Below are positions 48,510 through 59,196 of a stretch of 64,000 nucleotides of DNA, in pieces. Under the pieces are notes generated by a model. That model searched no databases. It worked only from the letters and a program-made list of their open reading frames with translations, and had not been told where the DNA came from. The DNA is from Barthelona sp. PAP020. Taxonomy: Eukaryota. Positions within the stretch are counted from its first letter, which is position 1, and every line of letters starts with the position of its first letter. Where the stretch lies: the NCBI GenBank assembly GCA_040182905.1, contig JARQWU010000023.1:1-64000 (forward strand), in the 5' to 3' direction. Both the position numbers and the translations under genes were made by a program.

Positions 48510-48584
48510 CTTTTCCGTTGTTAAATTTTTTTATTTTATTTATGACTTCATTAAACCATCCGTGGGGGTGGGGGAATTGAGGGA
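48510..48584. repeat. Left (element 3') degenerate inverted terminal repeat
   Basis: Blocks cttttccgt / gacttcattaaaccatcc / aattgaggga are reverse-complementary, in order, to 52361-52402. Confidence 0.75.
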
Positions 48585-51500
48585 TTTTATATGCGAACGC
48601 TCGTCTGATTGTTCTCATCGTCTGACGATTCTGAGACGCTGTGACCCGAAAATCTCTCATAATCGTTTACGATGGCACAATCAGCATAATGTTCTGCTAA
48701 ACCTGGTGAGTTCCAACCTCCTGCGGCGCGAACAACTTCCATGTCGGTATGTTTATCCTTTAGTTCTTTAGCCCGTCCTCGGCGGAAAGAATGGAGCAGT
48801 ATGTCCCTAGGTAAATTTCTTTCCTTCGTCCAAGCACGTATTCGAGTGTTTAAAGTTTTCATTAACTCAGTCTTCTCTTGTTTTCTAGCTTTCAGGATCT
48901 TCACCTTGTTCCGAACGAGATTTTGGAAGAATTCCTTACCTTGTGGGTGTTCGTTCAATTCTTGTTCGTTTATAGGGATCGTTTTGCTTGTGTCGTTCTT
49001 CTTAGCATAGATCGAAACCTGTACATTCCCGTCTTGTACTACTACTGCTGAATTCCCCAACTCTAGGTCGCTTCTTCGGGAACATGTGAAATATAAAGCC
49101 AGCGCGGTATCCCTGACATCTTCGCCCTCCGTTTCCTTGATGTATTCTGCCAAGTCCCAGACTTGACTCTTGGAGATTCCTCTTTGATCTCTTATTATGG
49201 GCTCTAAGCCTTTCCTACGTTGTTCATGTCGGTGGCTCATAGCTTTCTTATGTCTTTCGAAAGCGGGGTCCGGAGCCCAACCTAAGGCCCCCCAGAAGTA
49301 TTGTACGGCGGAATACATCGACTGTAATCTTGCCACGCCTACTTTATATGACCCATCTGCTCTCAACTCATTACCACATTCATTAATGAATTTATGTAGA
49401 ACCGTCTCTGCTTGCTTATTCACTTCTGCTGGAACTGCTTCATATAACTTCCCGTAGTACTGGAGGTATTTGTTGTAAATGCTCCGATATTGGTTCCAAG
49501 TTCCTACTGCCACGCCGTCTTTGAGCAGTTCTAATGTAAAAGGGTCAGCCAAACCGCTTAATACAGTTTCGACCTCCTGAAGTTCCTCGTTTCCTTTACT
49601 ACTTAGCCGGTGTGACAAATCAAGACCATCGATTCTCAGAGTCGGTTTATCTCCTTTTGTTTCTGCCACGTAATACCTCCATGGAAGCCAAGTATTGAGT
49701 CGCGCCCCGTAGATATCGATCTCTTTGCCAAAACTCATTGCTCGTAACATGAGATCCAGAACCATGTTCTCCGAAGTTTCTTTGTAAGCCCATCCGCCTT
49801 TGTAGGATTCCACTTCTGCGTAGAATAGGATACTTTCATACCCCCAAGCGGCTTTGGCTTCCTTTTCATCTAAGCTAATGGAGCTTTCCATCGGTGTGGA
49901 AAGGTGAGACGTTTCTAACATCTTTCGTGTGATAACCTCCGGATATTTTCCAAATGCCATCTTATGACGTCGGGCAACTGTCCTTATCTTCCTGCTTTTA
50001 TCTTGCAGACTTTTCCCTGTTCTGTTCTTAATTCTTGGACATTCTCGGACCATAGAAAACGTTTCATTCGTATAGTCTGGGATTTCAAAACTTGTGGGAC
50101 ATAAGGTAAGGTCACCAAAGAGGGTATTATCCTTTATTCTAACAGGTTTATCCCTGCTCAACATGTCTGCAACCTTATTTCGATCAGTAGGAATCCACAT
50201 GGGTATCACTTTAAGATTAAGTTCCTCCATGCGTCTCCATATCCTATTTGACATGTTCCGTAGTGAGTCTTTTACACTTCGCGCTCTTCTGAAAGCACTC
50301 AAGGCGACTTGGTTATCCACGAGCCACACCCAACAACCATTGAGTGCTTTTTCTGGGAAAAACTCAATAGCTTCTTCCAAAGCTGATAACTCTAAGAGGT
50401 CAATTTGTTTAGGAAGCTCTTTCTTTGGTTTTCTCTTCCGCATTCGTTTCTCCTCTTTTGTTTCCAATGCAATGCCAATACCGTTAAGAGATGCGTCGGT
50501 AGCAACGGTCGCTGTTACAACTCTTGGTGAAAGGTCTCCTCTAATTTCTAACTTTAACCAAGCTGATATCTCTTCTCTTAGATGAAGGGGCATGGTAAGT
50601 TTTGTAGAGTTGTGTAGCCTAACAAAATCTTCCATTGAAGAAGCTCCAAAGCGAAACATCTGATGTTTGACGAAATTGCTTATCTCCAAAGATAATCTTC
50701 TGTACTTTTGATGGACAATTGAAGCCGATTGGAGCTTTCCTTGCAGACTTGCTATCTCAGATAGTGTCATCACGTCCTTCGTCATATCTAGCATCTTCTC
50801 TCTTTTATCCCGAGGCAGGCTAATTCTTCGACTTTTTAAATCAAGGTCGAAACCTAGGTATTTCACCTCTTGGTCTGGTTTCTGGGTTTTACTTGATTTT
50901 ACTTTGAAACCAACTCCGTTCAGTAACTTCTTGGTGTGGTCTAATGCCTTTTCGGTTTCTTCTTTAGTCCTTCCTCCGATAAGCAAATCATCTACATATT
51001 GAAGGACAAAGAAACCATCTGCTCTTACTCTCTCAACCACAACCTGTAAAACCATGGTAAACATTTGAGCTGCAACTGATGAACCGAAAGGAAGTCTTTT
51101 AGCCCCGTATGTTTTCCCGTTTACTTTTACTTGAGTTAAACTAGCCCATTCCTCTGAGAGTGGTATATGAGTGTAACCGCTTTCAATATCAATCACTGCA
51201 GCCCACTCAGGAATTAAGGGAAAATATTTCAAAGTGTTAACTTCCGTGGCCCACAGAACACTTTTAGCATTCAGTTCTCTGCAGTCCAAGATTGGGCGAA
51301 TATCATCAACGCCCTTTGGAACTGCGCCAAGACCTGCTGTCAATCCTTTTGAAGGAGTGATCTCCTCTAAGACTCCCATTTCAATCATCTTATTTAACGC
51401 CTTCTCTTCATCAATACCAGCCCAATTTTGAACTTTAGCTGAGAGATTTGTGCCTTCATCAAGAAGAGTGGGTGCCCCTTCGATTAAACTTTTTAGAAAC

Positions 51501-52401
51501 CGTTTAGTCTCTGTATTGTAGCCAAGGGAAGTTGCGATTTTTTCAAAGTTTTCCCAGCACCAGTTCCCATCAATATCTTTTGGGGTACTTGATGATTTTG
51601 CAATACGGACTTCAGGGACGACGTGTGCTACCTGATCCCTTCTTTTCTTGATAACACTTAGTGTTTTGTCTTTTTTCTCTTCCGATTGCGGAAGCTGAGG
51701 TTTCTTGGGTAAATTCTTCTCTTTCTGTTCATTTTTTTTGGTTGGTTCTTTTTCCAAATAAGAAAAAGTTTTGTTTTTATTTGAATTTTTTTGGATTTCC
51801 AGAGGTAAGGCTACTCCAAAGCGATTGAAGCACATATCTATTAAGTCTTTGGCATATCTGTCGCCTGTTCTCATTGTTAAAATCTTTACAATGGCCGATT
51901 TGACCGCTGAATAGATTTCATCGTTGACACCATCGTCCCATCTGTATAAATGTAATTCGTCCAAAAAAATTCCCATAGTTAAGGCAATAACAGCAACGTT
52001 TTGAGCCTCGAATGCACCGTCTTGTCCTGCGAGTGCATCTCGTACATCTTTCGCACGAAAAATCTCTTGAAGAATCGAATTCGTCGTTCTAGCTGTTTCT
52101 GCTTTTACGTTGAGGAATGCAGGTCCATTTTCGTTGGATAGCCTCAACGATTTGGCAAATATTTCTGCCAATTTTTCGACACCTATTGGTGTTGTATCCT
52201 CTTTGTTGTTCATGAGTGTATTACTTCAAAAATAACGGTAAATGTTCGATATGAGGATCACGAATAAGTATTTTGAGAACGATTCTTTATGTTTCTCAAA
52301 TAAGTCTTGTGTCTTCCAACTTACCAACCAGTTGATATCAGTTTTGAGTGTTTGCTGTCGTCACTCAATTGGGATGTTTTATGGAGTCTCTTTACGGAAA
52401 A
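48511..52401 (-). mobile_element. Tyrosine-recombinase (DIRS-superfamily-like) retrotransposon, single ORF, apparently intact
   Basis: GC clearly above host; termini TTTTCCGT (48511-18) / ACGGAAAA (52394-401); GTTC direct repeat at 48507-10 and 52402-05; RT-RH-YR ORF. Confidence 0.88.
48587..52213 (-). CDS. Polyprotein: putative Gag-like N-terminus, reverse transcriptase, RNase H, unknown domain, tyrosine recombinase
   Basis: RT: VPK..IRPILDCRELN, IDIESGYTHIP, LPFG, YVDD (aa 406), YLGF. RH: TDAS (572), LLELSA, VDN, NKVADMLSR. YR: R1046, HSFR (1141), W1167, Y1176. Confidence 0.93.
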   Translation of the reverse strand: MNNKEDTTPIGVEKLAEIFAKSLRLSNENGPAFLNVKAETARTTNSILQEIFRAKDVRDALAGQDGAFEAQNVAVIALTMGIFLDELHLYRWDDGVNDEIYSAVKSAIVKILTMRTGDRYAKDLIDMCFNRFGVALPLEIQKNSNKNKTFSYLEKEPTKKNEQKEKNLPKKPQLPQSEEKKDKTLSVIKKRRDQVAHVVPEVRIAKSSSTPKDIDGNWCWENFEKIATSLGYNTETKRFLKSLIEGAPTLLDEGTNLSAKVQNWAGIDEEKALNKMIEMGVLEEITPSKGLTAGLGAVPKGVDDIRPILDCRELNAKSVLWATEVNTLKYFPLIPEWAAVIDIESGYTHIPLSEEWASLTQVKVNGKTYGAKRLPFGSSVAAQMFTMVLQVVVERVRADGFFVLQYVDDLLIGGRTKEETEKALDHTKKLLNGVGFKVKSSKTQKPDQEVKYLGFDLDLKSRRISLPRDKREKMLDMTKDVMTLSEIASLQGKLQSASIVHQKYRRLSLEISNFVKHQMFRFGASSMEDFVRLHNSTKLTMPLHLREEISAWLKLEIRGDLSPRVVTATVATDASLNGIGIALETKEEKRMRKRKPKKELPKQIDLLELSALEEAIEFFPEKALNGCWVWLVDNQVALSAFRRARSVKDSLRNMSNRIWRRMEELNLKVIPMWIPTDRNKVADMLSRDKPVRIKDNTLFGDLTLCPTSFEIPDYTNETFSMVRECPRIKNRTGKSLQDKSRKIRTVARRHKMAFGKYPEVITRKMLETSHLSTPMESSISLDEKEAKAAWGYESILFYAEVESYKGGWAYKETSENMVLDLMLRAMSFGKEIDIYGARLNTWLPWRYYVAETKGDKPTLRIDGLDLSHRLSSKGNEELQEVETVLSGLADPFTLELLKDGVAVGTWNQYRSIYNKYLQYYGKLYEAVPAEVNKQAETVLHKFINECGNELRADGSYKVGVARLQSMYSAVQYFWGALGWAPDPAFERHKKAMSHRHEQRRKGLEPIIRDQRGISKSQVWDLAEYIKETEGEDVRDTALALYFTCSRRSDLELGNSAVVVQDGNVQVSIYAKKNDTSKTIPINEQELNEHPQGKEFFQNLVRNKVKILKARKQEKTELMKTLNTRIRAWTKERNLPRDILLHSFRRGRAKELKDKHTDMEVVRAAGGWNSPGLAEHYADCAIVNDYERFSGHSVSESSDDENNQTSVRI

Positions 52402-52402
52402 G
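52361..52402. repeat. Right (element 5') degenerate inverted terminal repeat
   Basis: tcactcaatt gggatgttttatggagtc tcttt acggaaaag. Confidence 0.75.
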
Positions 52403-52701
52403 TTCAATAAAGTCTTATTTCATATTTTTTTTTTATTTGATTCCTCAGTATTGGAAGTTTAAGTGTCCAAACAATATATGTACATCTTTTTGGAGAGAAA
52501 AAAAAGCTTGAAGCTGAATGTAAAATCAAAAATTTGTTGTTTAACAATATTAGTATTGTTTTTCAAAAGTAATTTTCAATTATTTGAATATCCAATTGTC
52601 AAATAAAGATGAATCTTCATATTTTTAAATGAAACACAGTTTTTTTTTTTTTAAGAAATTTGAATTTTATGAAGATAATTATTTAAAATTTTGAAAGAAA
52701 T

Positions 52702-56330: not shown

Positions 56331-56439
56331 ATGATGTATATTTTCTTTTTACATTTCAATTTATGGAAGTTTTTGAGTGTCCACATGAATTAGAATGAGA
56401 ACTGCGAGCTGTATGGAAAAAAGGAAAAAGAATATATAT

Positions 56440-59196
56440 TTACCTGACTTTTCTGATGATACCTTTCCTTGGGTCTTGGTCGTCTGTACCGTCTGGAATC
56501 CAAATGAAACCTCTCTGAATGAATGTGGGGGAATTGTAGAACTTTCTTAAATCTGTTGAGATGTCTTTACACTTTTCATAGAATTCACCCACATCTGTTT
56601 CAAGATCGAACTGATCAATTGAACGCAGCTCCAGAACGTTATCTGCATCCAAAATATTGAATTTTCTGTTCATCTGATGCTTTCTCAATTCGAGTAGCTT
56701 GTACATTAAGATTTCGGGGATATTACCGCTCAACACGATATAATTGCTGAAGTCACGTTGCAACTTCTGACTAATTCTGTATCTTTGTGTGCCTATGAAG
56801 CTCTCCAAAACCATTTTGATTGCCAAATCGACATCGTCAACAGATACCTGTTGTGCCAATCTCATCTTTGCAAATGCTTCCGAGATTCTTACGATAGCTT
56901 CTAAATCACGAATGTAAACGTGCTGGGCATTTCCCTCGTTCTTGATGGTCTGTCTCAGCTTTGTGTAAAATTTGATTATCTTGTCATGCAAATGATGGCC
57001 AAACGATGGTTTACTAAATTGTCTGGCGTAAATGATGTATTTTTTAAGCATTTCTGGTGGTATCAATTCTTGACCTGTTATTGGCGATTTGTTGATATCT
57101 TGCAGATTGTTCACCCAGTCCCATTGCAATGGAACACTGTCCGGACCCTTCAAAATGGCGTCTCCCATTGATAGGTCTTTGTAAAGTGGATGCTGTGTGA
57201 TGTGGTTGAGAAGCACAAATTCTGCCAACTGTCCGTCGTTGTCGGGGTTAATAATGTCCTGAAGAACACAACAAATATCAAAACGACTGAGAATGGGGTC
57301 AGACAAATCAACGTTTTGCGTCAAAGGCAGCGATGCATCATACCTGCCCTTGGATGGATTTGCAGCAGCAATAACAGCGCAACGGGCATGGAGTGATGCA
57401 ACAATACCTGCCTTGGCCACGGAAACTTTTTGTTGTTCAAGGGCTTCGTGGATGGATGAACGGTCTTTCTCGGTCATCTTGTCAATTTCGTCGATAAGAC
57501 AGACCCCATTGTCTGCTAAGACAAGAGCTCCTCCTTCGAGCGTCCACTCACGTGTAATGGGGTCTTTGTGCACAGTGGCTGTGAGACCAACGGCTGAGGC
57601 ACCCTTTCCAGTTGTGTATACAGATCTTTTTGCACATTTTTCGGCAAACTTCAAAAACTGAGACTTTGCAACACCGGGGTCACCAACCAAAAGCACATTG
57701 ATATCTCCTCTGATTCTGTAGCTCTTATCACCTGCTTCCTTAACCATACCTCCGAACAACGAGGCAGCTATGGCTCTTTTTACATCCAGGTGTCCATAGA
57801 TTGTTGGTGCAATGGATTCGACTATACGGGACTGGATTTGCTCGCTTTTGCTGAGCTTCAAAATTTCCTGGATGTCGTTCTGCGTCAAGTCGTTGTTAAT
57901 CGAGCGCTGGGGGTTTGAAATGTTGTTTGCCTCGATAACAGTGTCAAAAACAATAAAACTGTTGATCATCGACCGCAGATCGTCCTTCTTGTGAATATAC
58001 TTTCCGGTGATCTCCACAAGGTCACCGGGGCTCGCCTGTTCTGCAAGATCTCCGGTGAGAATAACTGTTTTTTGACGGGGCAACCGACCTGCTGGTATTG
58101 AACCAGGAGGCTCCTGAATCTTCAGGGTTTGGTAGTTTATAAATTCTGTCTCGTTTGTCTCCTGTACAAAAGCAGGATTGTCACAGCCAGTACATGTTTT
58201 CGGTCTGTCGATCTTTGGGCCACTGAAATCGTTGGCCTTGAAAACAGTGAATGTTCGGGTCAGGGTGCCGCAACTCGTGCATTTGTACCTCACTTTGTGC
58301 AGATACGGTGATACAGGGGACCTTCGGGTGACAATTGCCTCAACCTTGACTAATTTATTAATATGCTGCTGTCTCAGCTCTCTTAAAAGCGTAACTGGTC
58401 CATAATTGTCGAATCGGATATGCACATTCTGAATAATGGAGCTGTAGTTTGGGTGCAGCTTCTCAGCCATGTCGACCAAAACATCATCCAAAATTGGTAA
58501 AACTTGAGAAGGGTATTTGGCAACCCAATCAGCAATGACAGACCATTGAGTAATAGCTATATTGTTGTCTACATCTCTTCGATAAATGCACAGATCATTG
58601 TAGTCCACAGAAAGTGACATCTCATTGTTTTCACACATGGAATGAACTCGTTCAATGTACTTAAAACTACCACTACTCGTTTTGTCGGGACAATTAAACA
58701 AAAAGTCCATAAACTGATAATATATGGATCTCTCCAAGTTATTGCGTTCCTGGGAATTATTGAAATATCTAACAGGCTCATTGATCTCGGTTAAGTCAAC
58801 CTGAATTTCATTTGGATCTGCTTCCCGCATCATCTCATCATCTAAAATATTATATCTCATTCTCGTATCACGTTCAATAAAATCCTCCAAATCATCAAAC
58901 TCAGTTTCACCCAATTCCTGTCTTCGACGGGAAATCTCATCCCTAACCAATCTTGGCAACAATCGTTCCATTCGCGATGTAAATATTCTTTGATTTGTGT
59001 GTCTTTCATCAATTTCTCTCTCCGCTGCAAGTCTCTGCGCAGGAGTAATATCTGCATATTCATTAAAATCTAAGTTGGAAGTATCATATTCGTCCAGTTC
59101 AGGTCTAGATTCATAATCTCCAGCAATGGTATCAAATAAGTCTTCCTCAGAATCTGAGCCTGAATCAGAATTGTACGATTCAAATGGTTGACTCAT
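56440..59196 (-). CDS. MCM2: DNA replication licensing factor MCM2
   Basis: LDEYD histone-binding N-terminus, C4 zinc finger, GDPGVAKSQ, REWTLEGGALVLAD, IDEIDKM, LSRFD. Confidence 0.95.
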   Translation of the reverse strand: MSQPFESYNSDSGSDSEEDLFDTIAGDYESRPELDEYDTSNLDFNEYADITPAQRLAAEREIDERHTNQRIFTSRMERLLPRLVRDEISRRRQELGETEFDDLEDFIERDTRMRYNILDDEMMREADPNEIQVDLTEINEPVRYFNNSQERNNLERSIYYQFMDFLFNCPDKTSSGSFKYIERVHSMCENNEMSLSVDYNDLCIYRRDVDNNIAITQWSVIADWVAKYPSQVLPILDDVLVDMAEKLHPNYSSIIQNVHIRFDNYGPVTLLRELRQQHINKLVKVEAIVTRRSPVSPYLHKVRYKCTSCGTLTRTFTVFKANDFSGPKIDRPKTCTGCDNPAFVQETNETEFINYQTLKIQEPPGSIPAGRLPRQKTVILTGDLAEQASPGDLVEITGKYIHKKDDLRSMINSFIVFDTVIEANNISNPQRSINNDLTQNDIQEILKLSKSEQIQSRIVESIAPTIYGHLDVKRAIAASLFGGMVKEAGDKSYRIRGDINVLLVGDPGVAKSQFLKFAEKCAKRSVYTTGKGASAVGLTATVHKDPITREWTLEGGALVLADNGVCLIDEIDKMTEKDRSSIHEALEQQKVSVAKAGIVASLHARCAVIAAANPSKGRYDASLPLTQNVDLSDPILSRFDICCVLQDIINPDNDGQLAEFVLLNHITQHPLYKDLSMGDAILKGPDSVPLQWDWVNNLQDINKSPITGQELIPPEMLKKYIIYARQFSKPSFGHHLHDKIIKFYTKLRQTIKNEGNAQHVYIRDLEAIVRISEAFAKMRLAQQVSVDDVDLAIKMVLESFIGTQRYRISQKLQRDFSNYIVLSGNIPEILMYKLLELRKHQMNRKFNILDADNVLELRSIDQFDLETDVGEFYEKCKDISTDLRKFYNSPTFIQRGFIWIPDGTDDQDPRKGIIRKVR

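Follow-up and report, generated by a model that had tools for sequence, protein, structure and literature searches.

The window analysed here, 64,000 nt of contig JARQWU010000023.1 from Barthelona sp. PAP020 (assembly GCA_040182905.1), carries on its minus strand, at 52213-48587, a single open reading frame (ORF) of 1208 amino acids. Its product, P0001, joins in one chain an N-terminal region, a reverse transcriptase (RT), a ribonuclease H (RNase H), a domain of unknown fold and a tyrosine recombinase (YR), as read from the frame and from Pfam matches. We think it likely that this intact gene is a copy of a retrotransposon of the order DIRS, belonging to an undescribed lineage, whose single protein, left unprocessed, would reverse-transcribe the element's RNA and recombine the resulting cDNA into the chromosome.

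The ORF is free of stops and carries no intron call, in agreement with the first-pass annotation, which had described an uninterrupted single frame of this length. In the two remaining sense frames, 80 and 82 stops leave open runs of 50 and 70 codons at most, and an overprinted ORF is therefore absent. The Pfam models RVT_1 (residues 336-456, E 2.8e-23) and Phage_integrase (residues 1017-1178, E 1.2e-6) both matched above their curated cut-offs, the latter in a hidden Markov model (HMM) search that the annotation had itself proposed. In the ESM Atlas, residues 895-1190 fell among integrase clusters with a score of 0.97. The annotation's positions for intact catalytic residues in all three enzymes were confirmed: P0001 contains D342 (the first RT aspartate), YVDD at 406-409, D573, E608, D633 and D683, followed by R1046, K1072, H1141, R1144, W1167 and Y1176 in the YR. 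Every one of these residues is identical in P0002, a protein of 1209 aa derived from a Trinity ORF marked complete in the transcriptome of Barthelona sp. PAP020. P0002 aligns with P0001 end to end, is 48% identical to it over residues 240-1208 and preserves the fused single frame. Because P0002 keeps both the frame and the residues, we do not regard the fusion of RT, RNase H and YR as an artefact.

Identity to P0002 varies strongly along the chain, whose segments all lie on the minus strand. Residues 1-135 (51809..52213), in the position of Gag, form a fast-evolving region with 13% identity to P0002, which four sets of DIRS N-terminal regions failed to match. A basic low-complexity stretch follows (residues 136-215, 51569..51808; 25% K+R), which we consider a candidate RNA-binding region. 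The label "Gag" given to this part at first pass found no support, as the 215 residues together are 13-16% identical to P0002, match none of the Gag profiles tried and contain no CCHC knuckle. The RT (residues about 216-490, 50744..51568) is 62% identical, the thumb/connection segment 43%, and the RNase H (residues about 566-687, 50153..50518) 52%. The domain of unknown fold (residues 688-900, 49514..50152) shows 44% identity to P0002 and 32 columns invariant among P0001, P0002 and a further relative, P0015. Finally, the YR (residues about 901-1185, 48659..49513), assigned from Pfam, the Atlas and its catalytic residues, comprises a core-binding part and a catalytic domain, its two segments being 43% and 39% identical. 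A scan of P0001 for a CCHC knuckle, a D[TS]G motif and a 2A-like motif found none of them, which agrees with the earlier report of neither protease nor knuckle.

The RNase H of P0001 gave no Pfam match at E<=1 and a weak NCBIfam match (E 0.1). Most of 147 outside matches nevertheless align through this region, to about residue 690, and P0015 matches RNase H-like models at E 2e-4 to 7e-4. The P0001 YR is DIRS-like in its H-x-x-R ... W ... Y end, with a weak profile match to five DIRS-type YRs by hhalign (E 0.002); a comparison with phages gave no match. The YR of P0002 matches Phage_integrase at E 2e-15, as well as XerA/C/D models.

A word-indexed protein search yielded one relative among 7991 candidates, P0002, and an exhaustive search of 1.84 billion representatives returned four proteins at E<=1e-30, namely P0001, P0002, P0015 and one outside RT-RNase H protein. 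P0015 (508 aa, 49% identical), also from Barthelona sp. PAP020, begins within the RT and ends within the domain at 688-900 though it is marked complete; we interpret it as either a damaged copy or an assembly piece. A set of diverged paralogues that includes a broken one is what a transposon family would be expected to look like. A more distant group from the same organism (P0069, P0178 and P0179; three near-identical members, five accessions) fuses RT, RNase H, a linker and a YR in 967 aa, with a near-zero N-terminal region and 28% identity to P0001 over RT-RNase H. The first-pass annotation had asked for a check that all genomic copies keep the fused frame; among the proteins, the fusion is kept in P0002 and, at a greater distance, in this group. 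Where P0001 has a W-type YR, the recombinases of the P0069 group end in the bacterial-style motif H-A-F-R-H ... LGH ... Y. They match XerA (E 2e-12) and phrog_1 (E 1e-15) best, while their core-binding part matches DIRS-type YRs. An exchange of recombinases within one RT clade is possible.

Beyond Barthelona, none of the pattern matches in metagenome contigs (0/381 and 0/220), viral contigs (0/106) or bacterial and archaeal genomes (0/38) was confirmed as a relative. A local YR profile run over 177 collected proteins also flagged five outside proteins (P0017, P0058, P0062, P0099 and P0154) that combine RT and YR in a single chain. Four of the five enter a methyltransferase and then switch to the YR, a pattern that by eye suggests ordinary DIRS elements whose gene models switch frame. 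As a separate observation, a 5332-bp record deposited as a Wolbachia plasmid (L001, NZ_CP087956.1) contains no genes other than those for protease, RT and RNase H and looks like a circularised host long terminal repeat (LTR) retrotransposon, not a plasmid.

Outside DIRS1/PAT-type matches share 25-35% identity with P0001 over RT-RNase H (best E 3e-32). We built quick trees from 154, 59 and 24 rows of 161 RT-RNase H candidates, the two smaller sets being hand-picked from FastTree clades. P0001, P0002, P0015 and P0069 formed one clade throughout (FastTree support 0.90 with 154 rows; Shimodaira-Hasegawa-like approximate likelihood-ratio support 96 with 59 rows and 99 with 24). The clade always lay on the DIRS side of the branch leading to Gypsy/retrovirus-type rows (99-100), on a long stem and without a supported sister group; P0069 was its longest end branch. 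Judged from these trees, the four Barthelona-type proteins are likely a new lineage in the order DIRS. The earlier suggestion of a minimal, possibly new lineage of YR retroelement stands in part: the element is a YR retroelement, its fused frame is kept in a distant relative and the lineage is probably new, but "minimal" is not supported, since PMC3266345 lists, in its Table 3, DIRS1-2 at 3793 bp and AcasDIRS1 at 3974 bp.

Residues 688-900 constitute a conserved domain of 210 aa between RNase H and YR that the first-pass annotation had passed over. It sits where DIRS/PAT elements carry a Dam-like adenine methyltransferase (MT) and is conserved as strongly as the adjoining enzymes. Among the 147 outside RT-RNase H matches, 110 carry this methyltransferase, 25 end too early for a call and 12 are without it. 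An MT remnant in the P0001 domain, suggested by eye, was rejected at the level of sequence by five tests: a profile of 67 MT segments scored the three linkers at -0.2 to -0.7 bits, and in four profile-profile tests the MT scores (8.5-11.5) did not exceed the means of the shuffles (10.5-12.1). Of the control proteins, P0106 passed (MT probability 85%) and the MT-less P0042 and P0111 failed; very divergent cases are missed by the test. Since P0042 and P0111 also failed, a structural MT remnant may be conceivable. The domain showed no homology to the P0069 linker (score 11.8, with 66 of 100 shuffles equally high), residues 690-900 had no usable ESM Atlas match, and predicted models were of low confidence (predicted local distance difference test 35.5 for residues 692-1208 from a single sequence and 35.2 for 688-905 from three sequences). 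P0042, P0111 and P0106, unnamed ENA/Logan proteins, have a DIRS-type RT-RNase H and form a supported clade, with a domain at the MT position that is degenerate in P0106 and unrecognisable in the other two. The domain at this position can thus drift. That of P0001 probably replaces the DIRS methyltransferase or descends unrecognisably from it.

The ends of the element are less clear than its coding part. The length of 3891 bp proposed at first pass could not be established: an 8-bp inverted match (48511-48518 / 52394-52401; 9 bp from 48510 to 52402) gives this length, and the proposed ends were apparently drawn from it. A 9-bp inverted match arises in 491 of 1000 shuffles (8 of 1000 when at least four G+C are required), and equal-sized flanks of host genes contain inverted matches of 8-11 bp in 18 of 18 cases. 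The left arm of this match falls 15 nt beyond the stop of the neighbouring leucine-rich repeat (LRR) gene, where the DNA, outside a composition step at 48555, is host-like. Directly after the stop of the ORF, a 31-nt GC-rich segment with a C-tract on the sense strand (48556..48586, minus strand; GC 0.61 versus 0.18) leads up to this step, beyond which the DNA is AT-rich and host-like; the step is likely the element's 3' end. A permutation test, applied to the 5' side only, supported a second step at about 52520 (3 of 500 permutations), which may equally mark the neighbour's promoter. A short imperfect inverted repeat may have its right arm at 48544..48561, which matches 52372-52388 at 15 of 18 positions. 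The candidate left end (52372..52414) comprises that arm and a weaker look-alike at 52394-52414, read by eye, which contains the 9-bp match. Neither candidate is significant. The summed two-arm score was reached in 17 or 71 of 1000 shuffles, depending on the gap setting, and in 2 and 10 of 40 host controls, all of these being post hoc. The direct-repeat score of the flanks was below the shuffle mean. The ends of the element are either very short, with imperfect inverted arms of about 20-25 bp, or eroded in the present copy.

Across the window, the eukaryotic contig is AT-rich and densely packed with genes, and long ORFs without interruptions encode ubiquilin, MCM2, COP-gamma, kinesin, spatacsin, Kri1 and Utp21. 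The P0001 ORF lies tail to tail with the LRR gene and, across 488 nt, head to head with a gene for an FWWh-domain protein; the genes on both sides are intact and eukaryotic. Its GC content is 0.42, above that of the flanks, and its codon composition departs from that of the host, with a GC content at third codon positions (GC3) of 0.395 against 0.19-0.29 in 22 of the 23 other window ORFs measured. Its CpG ratio, 0.85, is the highest among 15 ORFs over 1.5 kb. The remaining measured ORF, the MCM2 gene (56440-59196; GC 0.42, GC3 0.44), stands far above the 22 other host ORFs. No Rfam or tRNA matches were found. Two intergenic segments, 52452-52469 and 56364-56383, share a similar motif ending AGTGTCCA, and AGTGTCC occurs three times in the window; the shared motif is possibly a host regulatory motif or due to chance.

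While the domain content is directly observed, each step of the cycle that we propose is modelled on DIRS-1. One mRNA would give one chain, whose basic N-terminal part would bind its own RNA. The chain would then make cDNA and remove the RNA, leaving a single-stranded cDNA whose ends would be joined into a circular intermediate, by analogy with DIRS-1 biology (PMC7192593). As in DIRS-1, the junction would be recombined into a short matching target through a Y1176 intermediate, without target duplication. The anatomy of the protein, with neither a protease nor a skipping motif, implies that all domains would be made in a 1:1 ratio, and in place of a Gag-rich capsid the particle would be a small ribonucleoprotein that the basic N-terminal region holds together. 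The synaptic complex of YRs is a tetramer. Four chains would accordingly have to meet at the recombination step.

Several points weigh against a mobile element of a new lineage. DIRS-type inverted terminal repeats (ITRs), internal complementary regions (ICRs), LTRs and split direct repeats were not found in or near the ORF in repeat searches using exact and gapped matches and shuffles, and just 92 nt separate the P0001 stop from the convergent LRR gene. The 15/18 inverted arms are equalled in 51-60 of 1000 shuffles (p about 0.05) and in 5 of 40 host flank pairs. The 64-kb window contains no further RT or YR, and the protein collection contained no near-identical protein, the nearest being 47-49% identical. 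As recorded, P0015 is a "complete" ORF without a YR, so that one of three close family members is not fused, and all Barthelona relatives come from one transcriptome record set, in which Trinity or lineage-specific effects are possible. The host gene MCM2 matches the high GC3 of the P0001 ORF (0.437). The quick trees contain long branches, and their rows include no named Ngaro, PAT, VIPER or TATE sequences. The view of the element as young or active also found no support, given the absence of intact terminal repeats, a 90% cluster with P0001 as its one member and the distance of its nearest relatives.

The missing canonical terminal repeats would fit domestication: a family of host genes descended from a YR retrotransposon would retain the fused enzyme for work on behalf of the host, such as programmed rearrangement or insertion templated by cDNA, while having lost its own mobility. 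The gaps of 92 and 488 nt to the neighbours lie inside the host intergenic range of 5-1053 nt, the relatives are transcript-derived, each in a one-member cluster, and all enzyme domains are strongly conserved. We nonetheless regard domestication as unlikely: the protein retains each of the three activities that retrotransposition requires, neither GC3 nor the CpG ratio has moved to host values, P0015 appears decayed, and near-identical variants exist in the P0069 group. A highly diverged but ordinary DIRS1/PAT element, a subfamily with a decayed MT, a YR fallen into frame and repeats lost or eroded, seems to us distinctly unlikely. The prevalence of MT-bearing proteins among the nearest outside matches, the position of the domain at 688-900, by-eye motif echoes (LCPEVF in P0002 versus LNPEVF in the local MT profile) and the existence of degenerate MTs such as that of P0106 speak for it, but the MT tests were negative and the clade has a long stem without a supported sister group.

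An error of assembly or gene prediction, or a contaminant sequence misjoined to the contig, would account for the raised GC of the ORF, and the frame-switching appearance of the other databank RT-YR proteins is in line with it. We consider this highly improbable, as the genomic DNA itself carries the open frame, with no intron called, the independent, transcript-derived P0002 has the same length and fusion, the flanking genes are intact, and the searches of bacterial genomes, viral and metagenome contigs revealed no relatives. We favour a DIRS-order retrotransposon copy. In its boldest form, as a fifth subgroup of YR retroelements that radiated in barthelonid metamonads, still mobile at 3.9 kb, with an unprocessed polypeptide for both reverse transcription and site-specific recombination, a new domain in place of the MT and short recombinase-binding arms of about 20 bp in place of long terminal repeats, this reading is doubtful.

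The element may represent the first YR retroelement lineage in metamonads, as none of the papers searched joins DIRS, retrotransposon, metamonad and tyrosine recombinase, and it would be useful for the unresolved origin of the order DIRS. According to the relevant passage of PMC7192593, the specificity of DIRS element YRs has so far not been studied experimentally; one chain of 1208 aa that contains both RT and YR would be a simpler test object than three overlapping frames. Movement without ITR/ICR or split repeats, if it occurs, would call for a step that restores the ends and that the DIRS-1 model, where the ICR is described as essential (PMC7192593), does not include. Its suggested interest as a gene-writing enzyme is speculative.

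Among known YR retroelements, which have three ORFs in general according to the overview in PMC6681497, P0001 most resembles the DIRS1/PAT-like elements. It shares with them RT-RNase H similarity, the order RT, RNase H, (domain), YR, the absence of a protease or DDE integrase, an H-x-x-R ... W ... Y type YR and a size near that of the smallest DIRS1 elements. Unlike them, it has one ORF instead of three, with no overlapping frame, no zinc finger and no Dam methyltransferase detected at the sequence level, and our searches found neither ITR/ICR nor split direct repeats; the ITRs and ICRs of the DIRS1 elements described in PMC3266345 measure 66-316 bp and 85-130 bp. SymbioDIRS, as presented in PMC5890265, has its YR in a separate ORF. 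With Ngaro, P0001 shares the lack of a methyltransferase and the order gag, RT-RNase H, YR, and in fungal Ngaro the YR can share a frame with RT-RNase H (PMC3783388, in a passage silent on an intervening stop). It differs in that A1-B1-A2-B2 repeats were not found, the N-terminal region is also in frame and an extra conserved 210-aa domain is present; unlike Ngaro, its nearest matches are not MT-less full-length elements, in trees without a named Ngaro sequence. VIPER-like elements (VIPER, TATE) place the YR before RT-RNase H, which P0001 does not. In its section on Bodo saltans, PMC6681497 describes two TATE copies, 49% mutually identical, with all three genes in one ORF and repeats that are hard to find; their order is gag-like, YR, RT/RNase H (1464 aligned aa) versus YR last in P0001, in a host of another supergroup. 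We found no description of the P0001 lineage in the literature on one-ORF gag-RT-RNase H-YR elements or metamonad DIRS, although Repbase and subscription papers lay outside the search, and Repbase and the supplements of PMC6681497 and PMC3783388 may contain more one-ORF elements; the accessible part of PMC11316075 contains no retroelement description. One-ORF YR elements are thus already known in other branches, from the accounts of Bodo saltans TATE and of in-frame YRs in fungal Ngaro. P0001 departs from the defining features of DIRS1, PAT, Ngaro and VIPER-like elements alike, and the element is best filed in the order DIRS, with which it shares a DIRS/LTR-type RT and RNase H, a YR in place of the DDE integrase and the absence of an aspartic protease.

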